Source: Promethearchaeota archaeon (GTDB lineage: Archaea; Asgardarchaeota; Lokiarchaeia; Sigyniarchaeales; SOKP01). From it: a DNA stretch of 20,810 nucleotides. Made by a program: the position numbers and the translations under genes. Of this stretch, positions 1 to 20,188 are shown one piece after another (the first letter of the stretch is position 1; each line of letters opens with the position of its first letter). The DNA lies in the NCBI GenBank assembly GCA_016839745.1, contig JAEOTS010000061.1, positions 1-20,810 of the forward strand. Direction: 5' to 3'. The notes below the pieces were generated by a model. It saw only the letters and a program-made list of their open reading frames with translations. It did not search any database and was not told where the DNA came from.

Positions 1-2842
1 AGTTATAGGTAGTATAATCAACATTTCCAGCTACATCTCTTAACCATACATAAACGGTATGAGCTCCATCAGACCCTACAGTAATTCCGGTAATTGACGT
101 TATACCCGCACCTGCTTGATAAGTTCCGTCTGTATCAAAGGTCGGAGCAGAATCCAATTTATAGTATGCACCAGCTATACCAGACATTTCTGAAGGATTT
201 GACCAGGAAAGATCAAAATCGTCTGTGCTTGTCCAAGAGGATGGATCAGCAGCTAATCCGCCCGGTGAGGCGGGATCCGTTGTGTCTAAGGATAATACTA
301 CAGAGTCGCGGTTGTTATAATCAACATTTCCAGCAGCGTCTCTTAACCATACATAAACGGTATGAGCTCCATCAGTTCCCACAGTAATTCCGGTAATTGA
401 TGTTATATCCGCACCTGCTTGATAAGTTCCGTCTGTATCAAAAGTTGGAGCGGAATCCAATCTATAGTATGCGCCAGCTATACCAGACAGATCTGCAGGA
501 TTTGACCAGGTTAGATCAAAATCGTCTGTGTTTGTCCAAGAGGATGGATCAGCAGCTAATCCACTCGGTGAGGAGGGATCTATGGTATCTATTAAGAGAT
601 CTTTATTGTCTCCTAAAGAACCTGCAGTTCCAGGCACTGGAAGAGTTAGATCAGCAAGTAATTCATCTGAATCTTTAATTATTCCATTTAGGGCATTTGT
701 ACTATTATAATCAAGATCGCTTGAATAATGTCCTAAAGCTACTGTGTAAGTGAATGTGAGAGTAGCTGTTTCGTTACCGCTAGTGTAATATGCTATCCCA
801 TCTGGAATGCTATTTGTTTCTAAAGAAAGTGTAGGAGTACCAGTGACAAATACAGGTTCTGAAAAGGTTATTGTTATATCAATTACTTCTCCCGTAGTAT
901 ATGGTGTAATATCTGGTTTAGTAGAACTAACACTATTTACAGATGGCGTTCTAGCATCAACAATTATATCTTTATTTCCACCAAGAGAATCTGGGCTCCC
1001 TGGGACTGGAAGCGTTATATCAGCATCATTTCCAACAATACCTTTGATAGTTCCACTGTTTAAATCCAAGGCGCTGGTGGAAATATAATCAAGATCGGTA
1101 GAATTATGGTCCAAAGCGACCGTATAATTGAATGATAATATATTAGTTGCATCTCCACTAGTGTAATCAACTACTGCGTCATTATCACCTGTCTCCAGAG
1201 TAAGTTGCGGTGTTCCTGTTACATATACTATATCTGAAAATTCAATTGTAATTTCAATTGTATCCCCAAACCTATATGTGCCATTAGCATTAGTGGATGT
1301 AACATCAATTATCGATAAAGGAGGTATACAATAATTATTTTCAAACGTATTACCTACACTATTTTCTTCGAGAGCATACTCAGTGTTATCAACAAAAGTG
1401 TTTTCTGAAATAGTGTTAGAATCACTATCATTCAAACAGACTCCGTAATAATTTTCATGTAATATATTCTCTATAATATCGTTATTATCACTTAAATATA
1501 AAGAAATTCCACACTGATTATTTGAACAATTATTTCCAATCAATTGCGCGTTATCAACTGAATCTAATTTAATTCCTCCATCCATAGAACTTGATCCTGA
1601 ATTTAAAAGTTTAGAATTTTCTATTGTAAAATAGACACTCGAATTTCCGATTAAAATACAACTACCGTCATTCGCCGCGTCAATTATCAAATCACTAATT
1701 ATATATGGGTTACCTGAAGTACCTGAACCGCTACACCATGCTCTTGTAGAACTCCATGTCCAGCTTTTATTTCCACTTGCCTGGTTGCCATCAATATGAA
1801 TTTTACTGCCATCGTGGAATGGATCTCCATAAATTGGAAGATAATCAGTAGGATTAGCAGCACCAACGATATAGGTATACTCATTATCATCAATTCCATT
1901 TCTATCTGCGTCAGCTGTCGTGTGGTTATCCCAATAGTTTCCAATAACAGTGTTATTCCAGTAATTGATGGAAGGAAGAAAAGCATGTTCTTCGTCCTCT
2001 GCATGATTCGTATTATTAAGAAAGTAATTTTTATAAATATCATTTGCATTAGACCATTTAACAAATATTCCTTTTAAAGTATTAAAACTTGCAAGGTTTT
2101 CCGTGATATTGTTATTGTCACCATAATGTATAAAGAGCCCTATATTCCCGTTATTACTTAAATTATTCTTGATGATGGTGTTATATGTACATCTCTTTGT
2201 CAGACCAGTTGAGTCTGAATTGGAAAGATACAGTCCATAATAATAATTGTAATTCATGGTATTGTCTGAAATCGTATTATAGCTACAGCTATCATATAAT
2301 TGTATTCCGTGATAACTATTATTATATAACAAGTTTTCAGCTATGGTGTTATAGCTACTTTCAAACAGGTATATTCCAATTGTGTTGTTTAAACAATAAC
2401 TATTTATTATTTTTCCATTAGTAACATCTAATAATTTTATTCCCGAATCCGTTGCGTTCTCTCTCGAATTGTAGAATGTACAATTTCTAATGATAAAGTA
2501 TTCACTAGACTCATAAATCCCTATACCTTGAGCTGAACCTTCTCCATTTATAATAATATTTTCAATAATATAAGGCTCACTCACAGTGCCATTTCCAGTA
2601 CACCATGATTGTGCCTTAGCCCAAGTCCAATTGTGTGCACCAACACCTGTCGCACTTCCATTAATTTCAATTGGGCTTTCGTATCCCGAAACCTTTAGAT
2701 GACCTACATTATTTCCAACTTCATTTTCTACGATATCTCTATTAATTATTTTAACATCAGTTTGTATAAAACCAGCTATGATAAATAATGAAATGCCAAG
2801 AAATGATAGAATCAGAATTTTTTTTTTACGATTATTATTCAT
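1..2842 (-). CDS. Large secreted surface protein/adhesin, 3'-truncated by the window edge: signal peptide, 2 NosD-like right-handed beta-helix modules, 2 Ig-like ~120-aa repeats, at least 2 near-identical 101-aa FN3/Ig-like repeats
   Basis: Manual translation from ATG 2842 (MNNNRKKKILILSFLGISLFIIAGF...) found no stop before the window edge. Contains PIEING...NWTWAKAQSWCTGNGT..EPYIIENI cap, N-x-I-x-x-N / GIYL beta-helix rungs, GNYWD motif, then GTPQLTLETG / GTPTLSLET repeats and DGAHTVYVWLRDAAGN repeats. Absent from the ORF track, presumably because it has no stop in the window. Confidence 0.9.
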   Translation of the reverse strand, partial: MNNNRKKKILILSFLGISLFIIAGFIQTDVKIINRDIVENEVGNNVGHLKVSGYESPIEINGSATGVGAHNWTWAKAQSWCTGNGTVSEPYIIENIIINGEGSAQGIGIYESSEYFIIRNCTFYNSRENATDSGIKLLDVTNGKIINSYCLNNTIGIYLFESSYNTIAENLLYNNSYHGIQLYDSCSYNTISDNTMNYNYYYGLYLSNSDSTGLTKRCTYNTIIKNNLSNNGNIGLFIHYGDNNNITENLASFNTLKGIFVKWSNANDIYKNYFLNNTNHAEDEEHAFLPSINYWNNTVIGNYWDNHTTADADRNGIDDNEYTYIVGAANPTDYLPIYGDPFHDGSKIHIDGNQASGNKSWTWSSTRAWCSGSGTSGNPYIISDLIIDAANDGSCILIGNSSVYFTIENSKLLNSGSSSMDGGIKLDSVDNAQLIGNNCSNNQCGISLYLSDNNDIIENILHENYYGVCLNDSDSNTISENTFVDNTEYALEENSVGNTFENNYCIPPLSIIDVTSTNANGTYRFGDTIEITIEFSDIVYVTGTPQLTLETGDNDAVVDYTSGDATNILSFNYTVALDHNSTDLDYISTSALDLNSGTIKGIVGNDADITLPVPGSPDSLGGNKDIIVDARTPSVNSVSSTKPDITPYTTGEVIDITITFSEPVFVTGTPTLSLETNSIPDGIAYYTSGNETATLTFTYTVALGHYSSDLDYNSTNALNGIIKDSDELLADLTLPVPGTAGSLGDNKDLLIDTIDPSSPSGLAADPSSWTNTDDFDLTWSNPADLSGIAGAYYRLDSAPTFDTDGTYQAGADITSITGITVGTDGAHTVYVWLRDAAGNVDYNNRDSVVLSLDTTDPASPGGLAADPSSWTSTDDFDLSWSNPSEMSGIAGAYYKLDSAPTFDTDGTYQAGAGITSITGITVGSDGAHTVYVWLRDVAGNVDYTTYN
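13..593. repeat. Two tandem 303-bp intragenic repeats (13-290 vs 316-593) encoding 101-aa beta-sandwich domains
   Basis: Manual alignment at offset 303 gives about 28 mismatches in 278 nt (~90% identity). Confidence 0.95.
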
Positions 2843-5022: not shown

Positions 5023-5050
5023 ATTAAGTTTAAAAAAAAGAATTGAATAA
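5023..5050 (+). promoter_or_regulatory. Conserved promoter motif ATTAAGTTTAAAA-N6-ATTGAATAA of paralog 1
   Basis: Same motif and spacing at 8507-8534. Both begin exactly 68 nt before an in-frame ATG (5091 and 8575). Contains TATA-like TTTAAAA. Confidence 0.7.
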
Positions 5051-5090
5051 TGTACCATACCGAAATTGGACGTATTCATATGAATTTATT

Positions 5091-7184
5091 ATGACATTAG
5101 ATATACAGTTGGTTAATGGGATTGGAAAAAAAACCGCAGAAAGAATGAAACAGAAAGGGATAGACTCCGTAGAAATATTAGCGTCATCGAACGTTGAAGA
5201 TTTATTAAAAATTAATGGTATTGGGAACGCTACTGCAAGAAGATATATTAATACTGCCCAAAACTATCTTGAAACCATTAAAGAAAAAGAAAAAGGAGCA
5301 AATATTATTAAAGAAGTGGTACGACCGTCCTCAACTAGCTCAGAAGCGATATTAGATGTTTCAAGACTCTCTGAGAAGAGTCTTGATATTGTTCAAGAAT
5401 ATCATGATAATATAAATGTAGGGGAAAGAGAGAAAAAGACCATTAAAAAAGAAAAAAATCAAATCCCTCTTAGTTTAGAAGAGTTTTTGGGTGAATCAGA
5501 GGCGTCTATTTCGGAAGAAATATTAGACAATTCGAAACTAACTAATGAAAAAAATATTCCTGGAGTACCAATTATCACTAATAGTCAATTAAAAAAAGAA
5601 AAAATTGCCCCCACAAAGGCAGAAATGGTAAAGCCAACAAAAAAGTCAACAAAAAAGTCAACAAAAAAATCAACAAAAAAATCAAAAAAGAAGAAAGATT
5701 TTGTTGAAAAAAAGAAGAATTTGTCAACCATGAAAAAAATAGGATCTCATCAAATAAAATCAAAAATTGAACCTCAACCAGCCAAAAAGCAACAATTAAC
5801 GCACAAAAAACAGCAATTAAGGCAAATAGATCAAAAAATTACATATAAACATAGTACAAAAATTATAGAAGAACCAAGAATGAAAAAACCGTTACTTAGA
5901 ACATTTTTCTCTCCAGAAACAATACAAAAGATTCGTTTTTTCCATTTTAAAATTAAACATTTAGAAGTGGCAATGCAAAAAAATGAAGATTTCTCATTCG
6001 ACGATCTTGATTCTATTGTAGATTATATAGATATCTTAAATATTAATTACAAAACTCAGAGCCAAATAAAAATCATAAAAGAATTAGATATTACTCCCTC
6101 TTTTTCTGATCCCCTTGAAAAGAAAAAGATAGAAATATGGGATTTAATGTTTGAATGTGCACGGGTATTATGGGTAGCGGCACAAGCATGTTCTTATCTT
6201 TCTAAAAAATTTGAATCTGAAGGTATTTTGAAAAACGCGATAGTAGCGATGGTAGAATGTAGTAAAATGTATAAGGCTGCAGCATATTTTAGCGCGGCGT
6301 GTACTCGCCAAGAAACCAGGGGAACTACATTGTCAGCTGGAAATCTTGAACTAAATTCTGAGGAATCTCGAATTCTCGCTCAAAATCTCGCTGCTATACG
6401 CGAAGAACAAAAAGAAAACCTATCAATGGCATCAAATCTATGTGCTGGATTAAGTGCATTAACAAAAAGATTGTACTTTTTAAAGAGATATGATATAGTA
6501 AAGAAAAAACAGTTAAAAGCTCAATATAATTACGATATAGGCAAAGCTTGTCATTTGAAAGCTAAATCATTGTTAGAAATATCAGATGATAGTGAAAAAC
6601 ATGAACGCATTGAAGAGATACAGAAAAAAGCTAATTATTATTTTTACAAAGCGGAAGAAACATGGGAATACATGTTAGTGAATTTAAAAGAACTTTCAAA
6701 TTATGAAAAGGAAAACATACAAGCTAATTTGTCAATCGTTAATGAACACATCATAGAAAACGATGTTGAAATTATAGAAGAAGATGAAGCCATGAAAATT
6801 CAAGATCCGGAGCCACTAATCATAGTCCCAGAAAATATAGCACCATTTTTACCAAGGACTACTAATTATCTGACTCAATACAAACCAAGAGATCTCAATT
6901 TTTCCGCTTATAGACGTTATAAAGATCTACTCTCAGAAATTTCGGTTGTTTATAACAAAATGGAAGAATTAAAAAATAAGAAAGCAGGAATCGGTCGAAC
7001 ATTGAAACAATTGAGAGTTTTGTATGATAATAATGATATTGATATCAGTGAGTTTACTTATCTTTTTGAAAAATATTCAACCAAACTCGTAACAGTTGAG
7101 AATGTTATTGAAAAAATAAGAAATCCTGAGAAAAGAAGCAATATTAATAAGCAACAAATAAAAGAAACTAAATCTAAAACATAA
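5091..7184 (+). CDS. HhH-domain protein with Lys-rich linker, putative Bro1-like domain and C-terminal steadiness-box-like hairpin (paralog 1)
   Basis: Tandem HhH motifs VNGIGKKTAERM and INGIGNATARRY (HHH_5/RadA-N-terminal-like). C-terminal ~410 aa strongly similar to 8575..10536. ATG 5091 preferred over TTG 5043 from paralog alignment and promoter spacing. CDS and HhH calls are firm; Bro1 and steadiness-box calls are by eye. Confidence 0.8.
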   Translation: MTLDIQLVNGIGKKTAERMKQKGIDSVEILASSNVEDLLKINGIGNATARRYINTAQNYLETIKEKEKGANIIKEVVRPSSTSSEAILDVSRLSEKSLDIVQEYHDNINVGEREKKTIKKEKNQIPLSLEEFLGESEASISEEILDNSKLTNEKNIPGVPIITNSQLKKEKIAPTKAEMVKPTKKSTKKSTKKSTKKSKKKKDFVEKKKNLSTMKKIGSHQIKSKIEPQPAKKQQLTHKKQQLRQIDQKITYKHSTKIIEEPRMKKPLLRTFFSPETIQKIRFFHFKIKHLEVAMQKNEDFSFDDLDSIVDYIDILNINYKTQSQIKIIKELDITPSFSDPLEKKKIEIWDLMFECARVLWVAAQACSYLSKKFESEGILKNAIVAMVECSKMYKAAAYFSAACTRQETRGTTLSAGNLELNSEESRILAQNLAAIREEQKENLSMASNLCAGLSALTKRLYFLKRYDIVKKKQLKAQYNYDIGKACHLKAKSLLEISDDSEKHERIEEIQKKANYYFYKAEETWEYMLVNLKELSNYEKENIQANLSIVNEHIIENDVEIIEEDEAMKIQDPEPLIIVPENIAPFLPRTTNYLTQYKPRDLNFSAYRRYKDLLSEISVVYNKMEELKNKKAGIGRTLKQLRVLYDNNDIDISEFTYLFEKYSTKLVTVENVIEKIRNPEKRSNINKQQIKETKSKT
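5635..5682 (+). repeat. 4 x 12-bp tandem repeat CAACAAAAAA(G/A)T encoding (TKKS)4
   Basis: Directly visible; protein reads KPTKKSTKKSTKKSTKKSKKKK. Confidence 0.9.
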
Positions 7185-7190
7185 ATCAAA

Positions 7191-8162
7191 TTATAGCTTT
7201 TTTCTGGTCAAGTGCCAAATTAGTGCTAATTCTGTTATGATTCCGATACTAAAAATCTCAATAAGTCCAAATGAACTTATAGTTAAATCTGTTATCTTCG
7301 CGATCCACTTCATCGCTTCTAACAATAAAGGCCAATCTGATCCCTCATCAGACCGCTCTATAGTGTAATTAATCGGAATACCGTCTCTCTCGCTATCTTC
7401 CTCGAATTCTGCATGAGGACCGCTTAGAAAAACTCTCCCATTCCCATATTCGAAAGCAACAATTGCAGGTGTTTCAGTCGCGCTATATGTGCCTAGGATT
7501 GATACATTAGCATCTTCATATGGTATGAGTTCAGGACCTCCAATATATACGATCTGCATGTAGTTAGGCATGGACTTTGTAATGGGATGAGTGTGGTTAA
7601 TAATATCGATTCTGGTCATATTACCTGTATAAAATGGAGTAATCTCCTCTATAGGTCCAACTGCAACTCCACTAAACAAATCTAAATTTAATTGATCTCC
7701 CTCTATCTTATATGTAGGTGGTGGAAAAACAGGATCAGCCTTCCAAATCATATAATCAGAAGCATACCATGCCCCAGCACATATTCCAAAATATCCACCC
7801 CCCTTGCTTATAAAATTTTGAATTTTAATCTTACCTTCCAAACCTAACTCCCAATATGAGACATAATCACCTCCAGGCCAAGCGAGAACATCGAAATCAT
7901 CTAAACCTCCTCCAATAATATCATCGCCAGTGATATTAATAACGTTGCAACCCATCCACTCAAAACATTTTGTCATGGCGATGATACATTTACGAGCCGC
8001 TCCAGGACCATTATATAAGGCTATGTTTGTATTATGAAGCATTCTTATTTGATAATTCTCACTTGCTCTAACATTTGGGTGATAAAACGTAAATCCGTAT
8101 AGATATATTATAAGCCCTAAAAACACTAGAAGTAATAATGTTTTTCTATTTCTTTTCGGCAC
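7191..8162 (-). CDS. BPL_N-family (class I glutamine amidotransferase-like) hydrolase with signal peptide and C-terminal membrane anchor
   Basis: IALYNGPGA, WPGG, GGGYFGICAGAWYA (nucleophile Cys), GRVFLSGPHAE (His-x-Glu). N-terminal basic plus hydrophobic segment; C-terminal hydrophobic stretch ending RKKL. GTG start. Confidence 0.85.
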   Translation of the reverse strand: MPKRNRKTLLLLVFLGLIIYLYGFTFYHPNVRASENYQIRMLHNTNIALYNGPGAARKCIIAMTKCFEWMGCNVINITGDDIIGGGLDDFDVLAWPGGDYVSYWELGLEGKIKIQNFISKGGGYFGICAGAWYASDYMIWKADPVFPPPTYKIEGDQLNLDLFSGVAVGPIEEITPFYTGNMTRIDIINHTHPITKSMPNYMQIVYIGGPELIPYEDANVSILGTYSATETPAIVAFEYGNGRVFLSGPHAEFEEDSERDGIPINYTIERSDEGSDWPLLLEAMKWIAKITDLTISSFGLIEIFSIGIITELALIWHLTRKKL

Positions 8163-8574: not shown

Positions 8575-10536
8575 ATGCACTCAATTATGCAAATAGCAAA
8601 TGGTATCGGTTTATTAAATGCAGAAAGAATGAAGCAAAAAGGAATAAACTCGATAGAAAAACTCGCATCCTCTTCTGTCGAAGATTTGATTAAAATAGAT
8701 GGTATTGGAGTTAATAACGCGATAAGTTACATTGAACTCGCTAAGAAGCACCTAAAGAGTATGAGGACAAGAGAAAGAATCCAAAGTATTATTAAAAAAG
8801 ATAAACCTAAAGAAATCTCAAGTGCAGAAACGAAAACTTGCGATTTAATGCTCTTTGGAAGGAACCAACATAAGATTTCTATAAATTCTATAAAAAAACT
8901 CGCTTCATCTAATGTAGAAGATATTTCCAGAATAAAGGGTATTGAAATATCGAATGCAAAAAGGTACATCGATATTGCGATCAAATATCTTGAGAGTATG
9001 AGGATATCCGAAAGAGAAGAAGATATAGCAGAAATAAAACCCCTTAAACAGAAGAAAGAAATTAAAATACCACACGACTCAAAACTAAAAAAAGTTTCTG
9101 TTTCATCAAAATTAAAAATGAAGGAATATCCTCAAAAACGAGCTGTTAAAACGCAGGATATTGATGGTAAGTTGACAAAGAGAGCCAGTCATGGAATTGA
9201 TATAAAATCAGGTCAAAAAAAAAAACCGAAAAGCAGTCCATCAATTCTGAAAACCTTTTTCCCTTTAGTTACAATGCAAAAAATTCGTTTTTTACATTAT
9301 AAAATTAAAAATTTAGAACAAGCACTATGGAAAAATAAAGAGTTTTCCTCTTCTGAGCTTAATTATATTTTAGATTATATAAAAATCTTAAATGTGAATT
9401 ATAAAACCCAAAGTCAAATTAAGATCCTTAAAGAACTAGACATTTCTAATACTTTCTATGATCCTTTAGATAAAAAAGAAATTAGAATCTGGGATTTAAT
9501 ATTCGAATGTTCGCGCGTGTTATGGGTTTCAGCACTAGCGTATTCTTATCTTTCTAAAAAATACGAAGCAGAAAATTTAATGGAAAATGCAATAGTAGCT
9601 ATGGTAGAATGTAGTAAGATGTATAAAACTGCTGCCTATTTCAGTGCAGCATGTACTAGGCAAGAGGATAGGGGGTCTACATTATCTGTTGAGAATCTTG
9701 AATTAAATTCTGAAGAATCTCGAATACTCGCCCAAGCTCTTGCTACTACAAGTGAAGAAAATAAAAGAAATTATTCAATGGCAGCGAAATTATCAGCAGG
9801 ATTGAGCGCTTTGACCAAACGATTAGCATTTGTTCAGAGATCCGATAAAATCAAGGAAAATCAGTATAAAGCTCAATATCAGTATGACATAGGTAGAGCG
9901 TGCCATTTGAAAGCCAAATCCTTATTTATATTATCACCTGAGGAAAAAAATGAGGAAAGATTAGAAAAAATACAGAAGAAAGCAAACTATTACTACCACA
10001 AAGCAGAAGATTTATGGGAAAACATGCTACAAGAAGAAAAACTATACCCTTTTGAGAAAGATTGCATAATAAACAATTTGTCAATAGTAAATGATTATAT
10101 TATAGAAAACGACACGGAGCTTATAGACGATAGCGAAGCATTGGAAATTCAAGATCCGGAACCACTTATAATCGTTCCTGAAAATCTGGCCCCATTTATT
10201 CCAAGAACAATTAGTTACTTAACCGTATACAAACAAACAGATCTTAATTTTGACGCTTATTTACGTTATAAGAATTTAATGGCTGATGTTTTGGTAAATT
10301 TTAGTAAAGTAGAAGAGTTAAAAAACAGTAAAGCAGGTATCGGTCGAACTATAAAACAATTAAAAATTCTCTATGAGAATAACGATATCGATATAAACAG
10401 TTTTACCGAGCTCTTCGAAAAGTATTCAATAAAACTTGAAACTATTGAAAGTGCGATACAAGACATTAGGTCTCCTGTAAATAAAAAAGAAAGGAATAAG
10501 CTAAAATCACCATTAATTGAAACTACCGTAAGGTGA
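8575..10536 (+). CDS. HhH-domain protein (duplicated HhH unit) with Lys-rich linker, putative Bro1-like domain and steadiness-box-like hairpin (paralog 2)
   Basis: INSIEKLASSSVEDLIKIDGIG and a second unit INSIKKLASSNVEDISRIKGIE. C-terminal region shares long identical blocks with paralog 1, e.g. NAIVAMVECSKMYK, AAYFSAACTRQE, NLELNSEESRILAQ, IQDPEPLIIVPEN, KAGIGRT. Confidence 0.8.
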   Translation: MHSIMQIANGIGLLNAERMKQKGINSIEKLASSSVEDLIKIDGIGVNNAISYIELAKKHLKSMRTRERIQSIIKKDKPKEISSAETKTCDLMLFGRNQHKISINSIKKLASSNVEDISRIKGIEISNAKRYIDIAIKYLESMRISEREEDIAEIKPLKQKKEIKIPHDSKLKKVSVSSKLKMKEYPQKRAVKTQDIDGKLTKRASHGIDIKSGQKKKPKSSPSILKTFFPLVTMQKIRFLHYKIKNLEQALWKNKEFSSSELNYILDYIKILNVNYKTQSQIKILKELDISNTFYDPLDKKEIRIWDLIFECSRVLWVSALAYSYLSKKYEAENLMENAIVAMVECSKMYKTAAYFSAACTRQEDRGSTLSVENLELNSEESRILAQALATTSEENKRNYSMAAKLSAGLSALTKRLAFVQRSDKIKENQYKAQYQYDIGRACHLKAKSLFILSPEEKNEERLEKIQKKANYYYHKAEDLWENMLQEEKLYPFEKDCIINNLSIVNDYIIENDTELIDDSEALEIQDPEPLIIVPENLAPFIPRTISYLTVYKQTDLNFDAYLRYKNLMADVLVNFSKVEELKNSKAGIGRTIKQLKILYENNDIDINSFTELFEKYSIKLETIESAIQDIRSPVNKKERNKLKSPLIETTVR

Positions 10537-11033
10537 CTCCTATATCGAAATTGAAAAAGTACCTTAAGACAAGCATATTTTATGTCATATTAGGAATTAT
10601 ATTAATTATTTATTTTTATAATCGATTATGGGGAATATACCTGGCAAGTTTTGTTTTCGTAGTATACTTAGTATTTTTTTTAATTTCACTTTCTTCTAAG
10701 AAAAGACTTCTAAAAATAATTCGAGAATATCCAATTATAAGCGACAAAGAAATTTCTCATAAATTGGAGCGTCCTTTAGACGACGTTAGGAATATTCTAT
10801 TCTCGTTATCTAAAAATCAGAAAAAGAAAAAATGGTTAGTAGTGTTTCTGAATACACGGTATATATTTCTCAACGAACAAGCAGTTGAGAATTTTAAACA
10901 ACTATACAATATGGGATACAATGAAAAAAAGATTCTAGAACATTTACAACGTAACACAAGAATCAAATCCAGAGCTGAAGTAAAAGCTATTGAACTCACT
11001 CTTGCCAATCAACATAGACTTAAAAAAGAGTAG
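10533..11033 (+). CDS. Two-TM membrane protein with cytoplasmic winged-helix/HTH-like domain(s)
   Basis: GTG start overlaps the upstream stop (GTGA). Two hydrophobic helices at aa ~15-54, then LLKIIREYPIISDKEISHKLERPLDDVRNILFSL (HTH pattern) and beta-wing-like WLVVFLNTRYIFL. Confidence 0.7.
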   Translation: MTPISKLKKYLKTSIFYVILGIILIIYFYNRLWGIYLASFVFVVYLVFFLISLSSKKRLLKIIREYPIISDKEISHKLERPLDDVRNILFSLSKNQKKKKWLVVFLNTRYIFLNEQAVENFKQLYNMGYNEKKILEHLQRNTRIKSRAEVKAIELTLANQHRLKKE

Positions 11034-16765: not shown

Positions 16766-19700
16766 ATGAGCATTAAAAGAAATAAAATCATTCTACTTAA
16801 TCTTTTAGGAGTTTGTACACTAATTCTATTTAGTTTACCTCAGATTAATGTCAGTTTTAACCCTCCTAATTCTATTAATGATAGTGAAGTAAGGAACACC
16901 CCAAGAAACTTAAAAGGCTCAAACTATTGGGAATTGACATCCCCGATTGAAATTAATGATATGGGAGTTAATAATTGGACCTGGGTTGAAGGAGAGGCAT
17001 GGTTTGGAGGTGGTAATGGGACGCAAGCTAATCCTTACATTATCGAGAATGTAACGATTGATGTTGACAACAATTTTGAATATTGCATTAGTATACAAAA
17101 TTCCAACATGTATTTCATAATTAATAATTGCACAGTATCGAAAGCAAATATAACTGGAATTTTTTTAGGAAATGTTAACAATTCACAAATAATTAATAAC
17201 AAGGCTTTGAATAACAGCTATGTAGGGATAGGCTTAATTGAGAGTAATTCAAATTTAATATTAGGAAATAATGTAACTGGCAATTTTATAGGGGGTTTCG
17301 GTTTAAATAATAGTAATCATAACTCAATTTTAAATAATACTGCATATTCCAACGAGGGTTATGGAATAGGGGTAGGAAACGGTAATAATAATACAATCTC
17401 AGATAATGTAGCAACTTTTAATGGCGAACAAGGAATAGGATTACTGAACTGTAATAATATTACAGTTTCAAGAAACAATGCGAGCTTTAATTCATTGGTA
17501 GGTATAGCCTTTGGAAGTAGTAACAATATCTCAATTTTAAATAATATAGTAAATTCGAACACTGGTTCTGGAATAGGTTATGGGTTTTGTAATTATATTA
17601 CAATTACAAATAATATAGTAAATTCAAACGGTGAAGCTGGAATGGGAATAGGAAATTCGAATTATAATACTATTTCGAATAATACTGTAAATTCTAACAG
17701 TAATCCAGGAATCTCTATAGGGGATTGTAATTATAATACAATTTTGAATAATACGATAAATTCTAATGGTGATCTAGGTTTAGGTTTATGGAATTGTAAT
17801 TATAATGATATTTTAGGTAATACAGCAAATCAGAACTCTCGTATTGGGATATATTTAGATAATTGCACCGTAAACGATATTTCAGGAAACACAGCAACTT
17901 CCAATTCTGAAAATGGTATCAACTTAGTTGATAGTTATAACAGTTTGATTTTAAATAATATAGCAAACAATAACGCGTGGGATGGGATATCTTTCGGTGG
18001 TTGTAATTATAGTAACATTACAGGAAATACTATAAATAGCAACTCAATAGGGATATTTTATTGGGATGGTATAAATATACACATTTCAGATAATTCTGCA
18101 AGCAACAACGCAGAATATGGGATTGGTTTATGGTACGTTTATAATAGTAATATCTCGAAAAACTTGGTAGAAAGTAATGGATGGGCAATTTGCTTAGAAT
18201 CTTGCGATAATAATAATATAATGGAAAACGATGTAATAAACAACATTAATATGGGTATAGGTCTATGGAATAGCTATTACAACACCATTTCGGATAATTA
18301 CTTAAACAACGACGACTATTATGGTATTTATTTCTATAATAGTCATAGTAATAGCATTAGAAGTAACACCATAGGTGCCAATTATAATGGAATATATTTA
18401 GAAACAAGCAATCTAAATACAATTGAATTAAATACAATTAATAACAATCAAAATGGTATTTATATAGAAAGTGGACATTCCAATGTAGTTTTAAATAACA
18501 TATTTAACGGTAACACACAAGATATTGTTGATTTACAAGAAAATGGAGGAAATCCTCCTCTTCCTCCCGAAATACCCTTACAACTAATAATTGGAATTGT
18601 GTCAGTCATAGGTGGTGTTGCGATTCTAGCCATTATGCTTTTTATGAGAGTCAGATCTTCGAGAGCTAAAGCTCTTAAGCGAGAAAAGTATAGAGTGCCT
18701 GAAATAGAACGAGAATTAATCGCTCCAGTGGAAAAAGAAAAAGTGGAATCTTTTAAAGAGGAAGAAGAAATTGTAAAACCGCTAGTAGAATTATCGGTTG
18801 AAGATGAGCTCTTGGAAAAAGAAGTGGTTATTCCAGAAGAAATACTTGAAAAGGAAAAAGTGGTGAAAGAAGAGGTAATAATTCCTGCAGAAGAAACTGT
18901 AGATGAGGAAGTAGTAACTCCAGAAGAAATATCTGAAGAAGCAGAACTCTTAGAAGAGGAAGCAGATATTATTCCAATAGAACTGCTTGAAGCGAAAGAA
19001 ATCGTAGAAGAGGAATTTGTTGCTCCGGAAGGAAAACCAGAAGAAGAACCAATCTTAGAAGAGGAAGTAATTGTCCCAGAAGAAATACCGGAAGAAGTAG
19101 AAGTCTTAGAAGAGGATGTAGTTGCTCCAGAAGAATTACATGAAGAAGTAGAAGCCTTAGAGGAGGAAGTAGTTGTTCCGGAAATAATTCCTGAAGAAGA
19201 AAAAGTGGTAGAAGAGGAGGTAAGTATTCCTCCAGTAAAAATGCTTGAGGAGGAAGAAATCGTGGAAGAAGCAGTGATAGTCAAAGCTCCTGATGTTGTT
19301 GAAAAAGTTATACAGACCAATACTCTTAAAGGACATTTAATGGGAGTGACTTCAGTAGCGTTCTCTCCTGATATGAAATATATTGTAAGTGGCTCAAAAG
19401 ACAAAACGATTAAAATTTGGGAATTATTCTCGGGTAAACTTGTAAGAACCCTCACAGGGCATAAAAAACATGTAAATTCAGTTGTTGTGTCTCCTGATGG
19501 GAATTATGTAATCAGCGGCTCGAACGATAAATCTGTTAAAGTATGGGAATTAAATACAGGTAAACTAATTCAAACACTCGAAGGACATACTTTTTACGTT
19601 TTATCTGTAGATATTTCTGCTGATAATAATTATGTTGTAAGCAGTTCTTTCGATAAGGATATTAAAGTATGGGAATTATCGACTGCAAAGCTTGTGAGGA

Positions 19701-20188
19701 CGATTAAGGGGCATAAAAAGGAAATAGGTTCAGTTGCAATATCTTCTGACAATAAATACCTCGCGAGTGGCTCGAACGATAAGACTATAAAAATCTGGAA
19801 TCTTACTAATGGGGAGTTAGTTAATACAATTGGGGACAATCTAAAACCCATTACTTCAGTTGCTTTCTCTCCTGATGGGAAAAATATAATCAGTAGCTCA
19901 AACGATAAATCCATTAAAGTGTGGGAAATTTCGACAGGAAACCTCGTAAGGACACTGGAAGGACATACCTTTTACGTTTTATCTGTAGATATTTCTGCCG
20001 ATAATAATTATGTAGTTAGTGGTTCGTTCGATAAGGATGTTAAATTGTGGGAATTCTCAACAGGAAACCTTATAAAGACTTTCGAAGGGCATAGAAAAGA
20101 GGTAAATTCAGTAGCTCTGTCTCCAGATAATAAATATATCATCAGTGGTTCAAATGATAAAACGATAAAGATTTGGGAAGTTCAGTAA
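16766..20188 (+). CDS. Single-pass membrane protein: extracellular NosD-like beta-helix, TM helix, acidic repeat linker, 7 WD40 repeats
   Basis: Signal peptide; ~22-aa N-x-I-x-x-N-x-x-x-x-N..GI rungs; TM LIIGIVSVIGGVAILAIMLFM (~18572-18647) followed by basic RVRSSRAK; EEEV(V/I)xPEE repeats; seven 42-aa GH...DK.IK.W repeats from ~19316. GAGGAG and TTTAAATA upstream. Confidence 0.92.
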   Translation: MSIKRNKIILLNLLGVCTLILFSLPQINVSFNPPNSINDSEVRNTPRNLKGSNYWELTSPIEINDMGVNNWTWVEGEAWFGGGNGTQANPYIIENVTIDVDNNFEYCISIQNSNMYFIINNCTVSKANITGIFLGNVNNSQIINNKALNNSYVGIGLIESNSNLILGNNVTGNFIGGFGLNNSNHNSILNNTAYSNEGYGIGVGNGNNNTISDNVATFNGEQGIGLLNCNNITVSRNNASFNSLVGIAFGSSNNISILNNIVNSNTGSGIGYGFCNYITITNNIVNSNGEAGMGIGNSNYNTISNNTVNSNSNPGISIGDCNYNTILNNTINSNGDLGLGLWNCNYNDILGNTANQNSRIGIYLDNCTVNDISGNTATSNSENGINLVDSYNSLILNNIANNNAWDGISFGGCNYSNITGNTINSNSIGIFYWDGINIHISDNSASNNAEYGIGLWYVYNSNISKNLVESNGWAICLESCDNNNIMENDVINNINMGIGLWNSYYNTISDNYLNNDDYYGIYFYNSHSNSIRSNTIGANYNGIYLETSNLNTIELNTINNNQNGIYIESGHSNVVLNNIFNGNTQDIVDLQENGGNPPLPPEIPLQLIIGIVSVIGGVAILAIMLFMRVRSSRAKALKREKYRVPEIERELIAPVEKEKVESFKEEEEIVKPLVELSVEDELLEKEVVIPEEILEKEKVVKEEVIIPAEETVDEEVVTPEEISEEAELLEEEADIIPIELLEAKEIVEEEFVAPEGKPEEEPILEEEVIVPEEIPEEVEVLEEDVVAPEELHEEVEALEEEVVVPEIIPEEEKVVEEEVSIPPVKMLEEEEIVEEAVIVKAPDVVEKVIQTNTLKGHLMGVTSVAFSPDMKYIVSGSKDKTIKIWELFSGKLVRTLTGHKKHVNSVVVSPDGNYVISGSNDKSVKVWELNTGKLIQTLEGHTFYVLSVDISADNNYVVSSSFDKDIKVWELSTAKLVRTIKGHKKEIGSVAISSDNKYLASGSNDKTIKIWNLTNGELVNTIGDNLKPITSVAFSPDGKNIISSSNDKSIKVWEISTGNLVRTLEGHTFYVLSVDISADNNYVVSGSFDKDVKLWEFSTGNLIKTFEGHRKEVNSVALSPDNKYIISGSNDKTIKIWEVQ

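Follow-up and report, generated by a model that had tools for sequence, protein, structure and literature searches.

Does the stretch of DNA analyzed here, contig JAEOTS010000061.1 (20,810 bp) of a Promethearchaeota archaeon of the Lokiarchaeia (assembly GCA_016839745.1), encode an archaeal relative of the Bro1 domain? [quoted passage not shown] The whole 20.8-kb stretch, in the following referred to as the window, is contig C26 in an Asgard genome of 3.5 Mb with 192 contigs and a G + C content of 28–40%. It contains two paralogous genes (paralogs 1 and 2), whose products are labeled in databases merely as helix-hairpin-helix (HhH) proteins. A first-pass annotation of the sequence proposed that the central part of paralog 2 carries the ordered motifs of a Bro1 domain. 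Bro1/ALIX is among the few conserved ESCRT parts without an accepted Asgard counterpart; its orthologs have been reported as not identifiable in Asgard archaea (Makarova et al., 2024; PMC10936438), and no paper describing the Bro1-like family of the window was found in a literature search. The results presented here indicate, with a probability of roughly three in four, that these proteins are divergent Bro1 homologs defining an Asgard (Lokiarchaeial) family.

Predicted Fold of the Central Domain

A structural model of aa 226–653 of paralog 2 was calculated with AlphaFold2 from 32 sequences. The obtained model (predicted local distance difference test score, 83.7; predicted template modeling score, 0.70) is composed of helices, a beta-hairpin at model residues 68–79, and a separate long C-terminal hairpin, and displays the features of the Bro1 fold: an elongated helical domain, a TPR-like core, and the beta-hairpin in its N-terminal part. 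In a Foldseek search against the PDB, ranks 1–21 were all occupied by Bro1 domains (yeast Bro1, BROX, HD-PTP, and ALIX; E 2.9e-6 to 5e-4), and designed helical repeat proteins appeared after these. When 48,161 chains were compared at the fold level, five Bro1 representatives led every other helical repeat by 10 Z units, and the match covered ~80% of the Bro1 domain including its N-terminal beta-hairpin. The conserved central domain is very probably a genuine, highly divergent homolog of the eukaryotic Bro1 domain, and structure prediction followed by fold search, as had been proposed along with the initial assignment, supports reading it as such.

The four motif blocks behind this assignment were all recovered in the translation of positions 8575–10533, in the order TFYDPLDKKEIRIWDLIFECSRVLWVSALAYSYLS (aa 293–327), ECSKMYKTAAYF, LSVENLELNSEESRILAQ...MAAKLSAG, and IINNLSIVNDYII...IQDPEPLI. 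The span indicated for them (9250–10200) corresponds to aa 226–542, and the same blocks occur in paralog 1 (5043/5091–7184). Their description as the most conserved parts holds with regard to nearly invariant columns (in model numbering D82, E86, K126, A128, F131, E155, R158, A161, Q162, G184, L185, L277, V280, P305, and P310-E311-N312), but conservation is just as high past position 10200, in a region that contains the motif PEN..PF.P and the KAGIGRTIKQL hairpin. Sequence comparison of the window proteins could not show the likeness to ALIX, whereas at the fold level it was far above chance, and the block order fits the structurally matching ranges (model residues 2–318 vs. ALIX 19–346). In what we take to be the ALIX numbering, the offsets of the four blocks lie between +24 and +35 and are compatible with these ranges. 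In the corresponding motif-anchored alignment, which presumes this ALIX sequence and serves as a lead only, the Surface 1 position of I212 is occupied by M, F, or L and that of L216, also in Surface 1, by L or M throughout the family. The assumed numbering is consistent with the residues I212, I318, and Y319 cited in PMC3230590, where I212 of ALIX, like K144/L212 of BROX, belongs to Surface 1, an exposed hydrophobic patch on the domain's concave side to which Snf7/CHMP4 binds with its C-terminal helix.

Sequence Relationship to the Bro1 Family

On the sequence level, the link to Bro1 is thin and rests on one member of the family, the 405-aa stand-alone homolog P0156 from a Promethearchaeota metagenome, which matched the Pfam family BRO1 (PF03097) with an E of 3.2e-8 (residues 9–182, positions 33–208 of the hidden Markov model, HMM). 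The match emerged from a Pfam scan of each member of alignment A1, its E survives correction for the ~50 proteins scanned, and P0156 also carries the PF03097 tag in the public collection. P0156 in turn matched the window domain with an E of 3e-22 and could be aligned with it end to end (alignment A3). When further proteins of the P0156 subfamily were sought, P0152 alone was retrieved. As single queries against all PDB chains, neither the window domain nor P0156 retrieved a Bro1 chain at E ≤ 10. The PF03097 model found only an unrelated 13-bit match on contig C147 in the same genome, and no match above cut-off in 400 Asgard genomes. As leads only, the ESM Atlas cluster of the stand-alone ortholog P0129 is automatically named “putative BRO1 domain-containing protein,” and among the other named clusters, the eukaryotic BRO1, PalC, and ALIX-like families come next in proximity (scores 0.81–0.84).

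Several findings weigh against homology to Bro1. In the Pfam check suggested by the first-pass annotation, paralogs 1 and 2 gave no BRO1 match even at E ≤ 10, and neither did eight further orthologs. The P0156 match, at 33.3 bits, falls below the PF03097 gathering cut-off of 35.1 bits, and HMMER searches of all PDB chains with the family profiles A1, A3, and A4 retrieved no Bro1 chain at E ≤ 10. In the alignment on the presumed ALIX sequence, the position of F199, which we take to be part of Surface 1, varies between T, I, L, and S (a lead only), and the Surface 2 motif (ND-aromatic-I-I) presumably is retained solely in the HhH-bearing clade. Finally, the model superposes on Bro1 domains at 4.0–4.8 Å over 275–295 residues, whereas eukaryotic Bro1 domains superpose on each other at 2.6–3.1 Å over about 372 residues (PMC3230590); owing to this looser superposition the window domain is considered a distant Bro1 branch. 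A TPR-like helical solenoid that came to resemble Bro1 by convergence, without common ancestry, would likewise agree with the failure of the HMMER profiles, with the low identity to solved Bro1 domains (11–15%), with weak Pfam matches to TPR and MIT models in the same region, and with a weak BRO1 match (E 0.0018) of L070, a relative from another Asgard family, the register of this match being displaced in the manner of repeats. Such an origin is nevertheless very unlikely in view of the 10 Z-unit gap to other helical repeats, the ~80% coverage of the Bro1 domain including the beta-hairpin, the E of 3.2e-8 obtained for P0156, and language-model features that independently indicate the BRO1 and PalC families. 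Homology thus remains the preferred explanation. Since the Pfam gathering cut-off was missed, the window family is filed outside PF03097 as now drawn and is regarded as a new, divergent family within the Bro1 fold and superfamily.

Weak BRO1 matches (E 2e-6 to 7e-4, HMM positions 138–311) were also obtained for helical repeat proteins of ~400 aa in family f13 (L011:1453-2679, L013:763-1827, and L015:604-1827), and genome G015 contains two near-identical copies of this type 5 kb apart. These TPR-like proteins (408 aa) were rejected as relatives of the window family (hhalign probability, 0.7%) and could be a second Bro1-like family or merely TPR proteins.

The C-terminal Hairpin

The C-terminal hairpin of the predicted model can be superposed on core chains of Vps23 with a root mean square deviation of 1.6–1.7 Å over 60–65 residues, and ESCRT-I core chains are its top structural matches. 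The helical hairpin is, however, a generic type of fold. Pfam searches with eight C-terminal fragments gave no significant match to Vps23_core (PF09454; best E 0.13, for the tail of P0156), and profile A4 reached Vps23 chains only with a non-significant E of 0.6–0.9. The best PF09454 match in the entire genome (E 0.004) was the tail of a PH-like protein on contig C105, whose gene adjoins that of ESCRT-IIIB (L006:1390-2049) in convergent orientation. This 450-aa protein (L006:3-1355; G000:C105) consists of an N-terminal PH/GRAM-like region, a long low-complexity middle part rich in Q, N, P, and Y, and a C-terminal steadiness-box (SB)-type hairpin, and is probably a member of the Znr_CC_PH_SB-type family minus the Zn ribbon. 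When a profile of eight hairpins of the window family (A5) was compared by hhalign with the tail of the C105 protein, a probability of 91.9% was obtained (E 7e-7, 70 columns), and 80.9% was reached with the tail of another protein of this genome (466 aa, contig C115), compared to 0.2% for the controls ESCRT-IIIB and GrpE. The A3 profile also matched, in two further Asgard families, the tails of Zn-ribbon/GRAM proteins adjoining ESCRT-III genes, a layout that corresponds to the Znr_CC_PH_SB architecture (cog.011556; Makarova et al., 2024; PMC10936438). The motif (F/Y)(S/G)(L/I)xRTIxxL...G.I(S/D)...F is common to the hairpin and that of the Zn-ribbon/PH(GRAM) proteins encoded next to ESCRT-IIIB. 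These data indicate that the hairpin is homologous to the SB-type hairpin of the Znr/PH-SB proteins encoded beside ESCRT-IIIB, and its relation to the tails of ESCRT-III-adjacent proteins therefore identifies it as a module in common with proteins of the ESCRT cluster. The label “steadiness box” itself is reasonable but indirect, and it counts against an ESCRT-specific reading that the loop motif resembles SHOCT as well. A 284-aa protein (L073:1369-2220; G307:C6) combines CDC48_N and CDC48_2 with an SB/SHOCT-like hairpin and a C-terminal Zn ribbon; its hairpin matched the hairpin columns of A3 with an E of 8e-4.

Distribution and Evolution of the Family

All 485 homologs retrieved with paralog 2 are labeled Asgard, the close ones Lokiarchaeota or Promethearchaeota; many are of metagenomic origin, and the last 428 residues are 70–90% identical across genera. 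Among 400 genomes of the phylum searched, the domain was detected in 127 of the 134 that belong to the GTDB family of the window. Outside this family matches comprised the hairpin only, except for the aforementioned L070 (L070:1333-2862; G307:C4), a 510-aa protein of family f28, whose residues 82–355 are related to the Bro1-like domain (A3, hhalign probability 96.7%). The SB hairpin is absent from L070, whose last 150 aa form an unassigned C-terminal part. Its weak BRO1 match was rejected as support for the Bro1 assignment, being ~70 positions out of register with the match of P0156.

A third copy in the same genome, on contig C4 (L009:9302-10549; G000:C4:76301-77548), encodes a stand-alone protein of 415 aa with 48% identity. 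It is adjoined by a divergently transcribed ATP-grasp gene (preATP-grasp_3 and ATP-grasp_3), and a small Ras/Arf-type GTPase and two unknown genes lie nearby. The same ATP-grasp/GTPase synteny surrounds P0152, P0156, and P0161 at just 22–28% identity, which suggests a functional link of the stand-alone form to the ATP-grasp enzyme and/or the GTPase. In a quick IQ-TREE analysis rooted on these three proteins (a provisional root, as the outgroup sequences are long-branched and of odd composition), the stand-alone forms were basal and all N-terminally extended forms formed one clade (Shimodaira–Hasegawa-like approximate likelihood ratio test, 99). The window paralogs each clustered with orthologs from other genomes, paralog 1 with P0124. 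According to this topology, the HhH forms are derived and their duplication is old. A stand-alone protein of ~415 aa with a Bro1 domain and a C-terminal hairpin looks ancestral, and the window genes would be derived paralogs to which an HhH head and a basic linker were added at the N terminus. In the metagenomic homologs P0128, P0134, P0136, and P0127, which form a sub-clade within the extended clade, the HhH is replaced by an alternative head that matched no Pfam family.

A recent horizontal acquisition from a eukaryote, for which the narrow spread over one GTDB family and a few divergent genomes might speak, is extremely improbable given the extreme divergence from all eukaryotic Bro1 domains (no HMMER match), the archaeal-type fusions (the HhH head and an SB-type hairpin common to Asgard proteins), the deep internal divergence between subfamilies with the same synteny (22–28% identity), and a G + C content that resembles the surroundings.

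Gene Neighborhood and the Linkage to ESCRT

The stop codon of paralog 2 overlaps the start of a partner gene, which was found in 124 of the 134 genomes of the GTDB family. In no fewer than 35 genomes from five genera, a comparison of coordinates placed it directly downstream of an N-terminally extended gene of the Bro1-like family; it was not found after the stand-alone form. The pairing with this membrane-anchored tandem winged-helix protein is thus conserved. A second copy of the partner (35% identity) is located on contig C17 (G000:C17:663-1121; L060:618-1169), where no Bro1-like gene was found, and most genomes of the GTDB family contain such an unpaired second copy. The conserved gene order is DUF2299, HhH-Bro1, partner, DnaJ, DnaK, GrpE, and Pirin, which we read as reflecting neighborhood rather than function.

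This context provides arguments against a function in the ESCRT system. No ESCRT gene was found in seven neighborhoods (the window and six related loci). The HhH form has DUF2299, DnaJ, DnaK, GrpE, and Pirin as conserved neighbors, the stand-alone form the ATP-grasp enzyme and the small GTPase; in the genome of the window, ESCRT-IIIA (L005:1438-2064, minus strand) with Vps4 (contig C35) and ESCRT-IIIB (contig C105, minus strand of L006) are encoded away from the window genes. In addition, the family is restricted to a single GTDB family, being essentially absent elsewhere among the 400 genomes, and two closed single-contig genomes of the sister family gave no match. The proteins could therefore be true Bro1-fold homologs whose job lies outside ESCRT, for example as a nucleoid-to-membrane or other protein scaffold, and whose resemblance to ALIX reflects ancestry only. 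The lack of ESCRT synteny and the narrow range make this a serious alternative, which has a considerable chance of being correct, though below an even one. It also agrees with the strong gene pairs, which are formed with a winged-helix protein with two transmembrane helices and, for the stand-alone form, with the ATP-grasp enzyme and the small GTPase, and with the far wider distribution of ESCRT among Asgard archaea (PMC10936438). It is disfavored by the specific relation of the hairpin to hairpins encoded beside ESCRT-III in three Asgard families, by the ESCRT-I core chains as best structural matches of this hairpin, and by the fact that every characterized Bro1 domain binds ESCRT-III tails (PMC3230590).

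Organization of the Locus

The features of the two paralogs and the partner gene are listed in Table 1. Paralog 2 encodes, in this order, two HhH modules, a Lys-rich linker, the Bro1-fold domain, and the C-terminal hairpin; in paralog 1 a single HhH is followed by a long Lys-rich linker, the Bro1-fold domain, and the hairpin, and its likely start is ATG 5091, as in the ortholog P0124. Both proteins share 61% identity across their last 483 aa. HHH_5 (PF14520) was matched above the Pfam cut-off of 27 bits in two stretches of paralog 2 (E 1.7e-9, 38.5 bits) and in paralog 1 (48.4 bits), and the HhH region showed weak profile matches to the C-terminal HhH domains of NusA and the N-terminal ones of RadA/Rad51. 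Between the paralogs lies a gene of the BPL_N/ThuA-like class I glutamine-amidotransferase fold with hydrophobic N and C termini (7191–8162, minus strand); in related genomes the paralog pair is spaced more tightly (e.g., G236:C276, 551–1807 and 2980–4260). The window further encodes a 1140-aa protein with NosD/right-handed beta-helix repeats fused to a seven-blade WD40 propeller (16766–20188, plus strand), and a second large NosD/beta-helix protein (2–2842, minus strand) that continues past the left window end.

Table 1. Coordinates of the Bro1-like paralogs, their predicted modules, and the partner gene in the window.
Feature	Position	Strand	Basis
Paralog 2 gene	8575..10536	+	Open reading frame and translation; 653 aa from 8575; start at 8587 in public collection (649 aa)
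Two HhH modules, paralog 2 (~aa 5–60, 100–146)	8587..9012	+	Pfam HHH_5
Lys-rich linker, paralog 2, poorly conserved	9013..9249	+	Sequence read; alignment without consensus
Bro1-fold domain, paralog 2 (aa 226–545, model residues 1–320)	9250..10209	+	
C-terminal helical hairpin, paralog 2 (aa 559–636), steadiness-box-like	10249..10482	+	
Paralog 1 gene	5043..7184	+	Open reading frame from TTG 5043
HhH module, paralog 1	5109..5258	+	Pfam HHH_5, E 1.3e-12, 48.4 bits
Bro1-fold domain, paralog 1	5889..6848	+	Homology to paralog 2; collinear alignment, 61% identity; in A1 and A3
C-terminal hairpin, paralog 1	6900..7133	+	Alignment A5; own-genome search with A5, E 4.8e-37
Partner gene, 166 aa: two transmembrane helices, then tandem winged-helix domains	10533..11033	+	

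Comparison with Known Systems and Possible Role

Solved eukaryotic Bro1 domains (PF03097) include those of yeast Bro1p (1zb1), human ALIX/PDCD6IP (2oew, 2xs1, 3c3o), HD-PTP/PTPN23 (3rau, 5crv, 5mk2), and BROX (3r9m, 3zxp, 3um3). In contrast to eukaryotic Bro1 proteins, the window family lacks the V domain and the Pro-rich tail and instead has an HhH head and a basic linker, together with an SB-type hairpin of 60 aa; it scores below the Pfam cut-off or is undetected, is unlinked to ESCRT genes, and does not carry the Surface 2 motif family-wide. The ESCRT-I steadiness box (Vps23/TSG101 core, PF09454) is a helical hairpin of ~60 aa of the kind present in the Vps23, Vps28, and Vps37 headpiece; the hairpin of the window family superposes on Vps23 core chains, but the UEV domain and the stalk are absent. 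CdvA of the Thermoproteota consists of a PRC barrel and an E3B peptide without a Bro1 domain or HhH, and Pfam CdvA matches in the window family reach just E 0.02. Eme et al. (2023; PMC10307638) likewise claimed Asgard counterparts, entered as “Bro1.” In the accessible part of that source, three entries of ~75–155 aa from Heimdall- and Njordarchaeial lineages carry the accession PF18097, and a fourth “Bro1” row in the supplement is from Thorarchaeia. As far as listed there, these entries were rejected as members of the window family, because they are too short for a Bro1 domain of ~360 aa.

For the proteins described here, an ESCRT-linked role of any kind has a chance only a little short of even. 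If such a role exists, the HhH-Bro1 protein would act as a scaffold or adaptor in the archaeal ESCRT system: the hairpin could associate with further ESCRT-I/II-like proteins that carry an SB, and the Bro1 domain could, as in ALIX/Bro1, accommodate an ESCRT-III subunit's C-terminal helix on its concave face. DNA or another polyanion might be bound by the HhH head together with the basic linker, and the winged-helix partner would anchor the complex at the membrane. A plausible ligand of the Bro1 domain is the acidic tail of ESCRT-IIIB, which is strongly conserved and ends with KLxDEIxKLRKELE, although direct binding of an ESCRT-III tail is, on the whole, rather doubtful. More speculative still, and improbable on present data, is a DNA-to-membrane-to-ESCRT tether formed by the HhH-Bro1-SB proteins and their membrane-anchored winged-helix partner, which would couple scission to chromosome clearance. 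Here, nucleation or retention of ESCRT-IIIB by the Bro1 domain would occur via the C-terminal helix of ESCRT-IIIB, the hairpin would insert into a headpiece resembling that of ESCRT-I, and chromosomal DNA would be sensed or held by the HhH head. If true, this would represent an archaeal precursor of what ALIX does in cytokinetic abscission and would make the link between Bro1 and ESCRT-III older than the eukaryotes.

As the family is narrow, being confined to one GTDB family, and its ESCRT link is inferred, it may reflect a lineage-specific elaboration more than the ancestor of the eukaryotes. If real, a Lokiarchaeial Bro1-fold family fused to an ESCRT-I-type hairpin would extend the archaeal ESCRT toolkit, and it would supply a concrete protein pair for probing the origin of the interaction between Bro1 and ESCRT-III.

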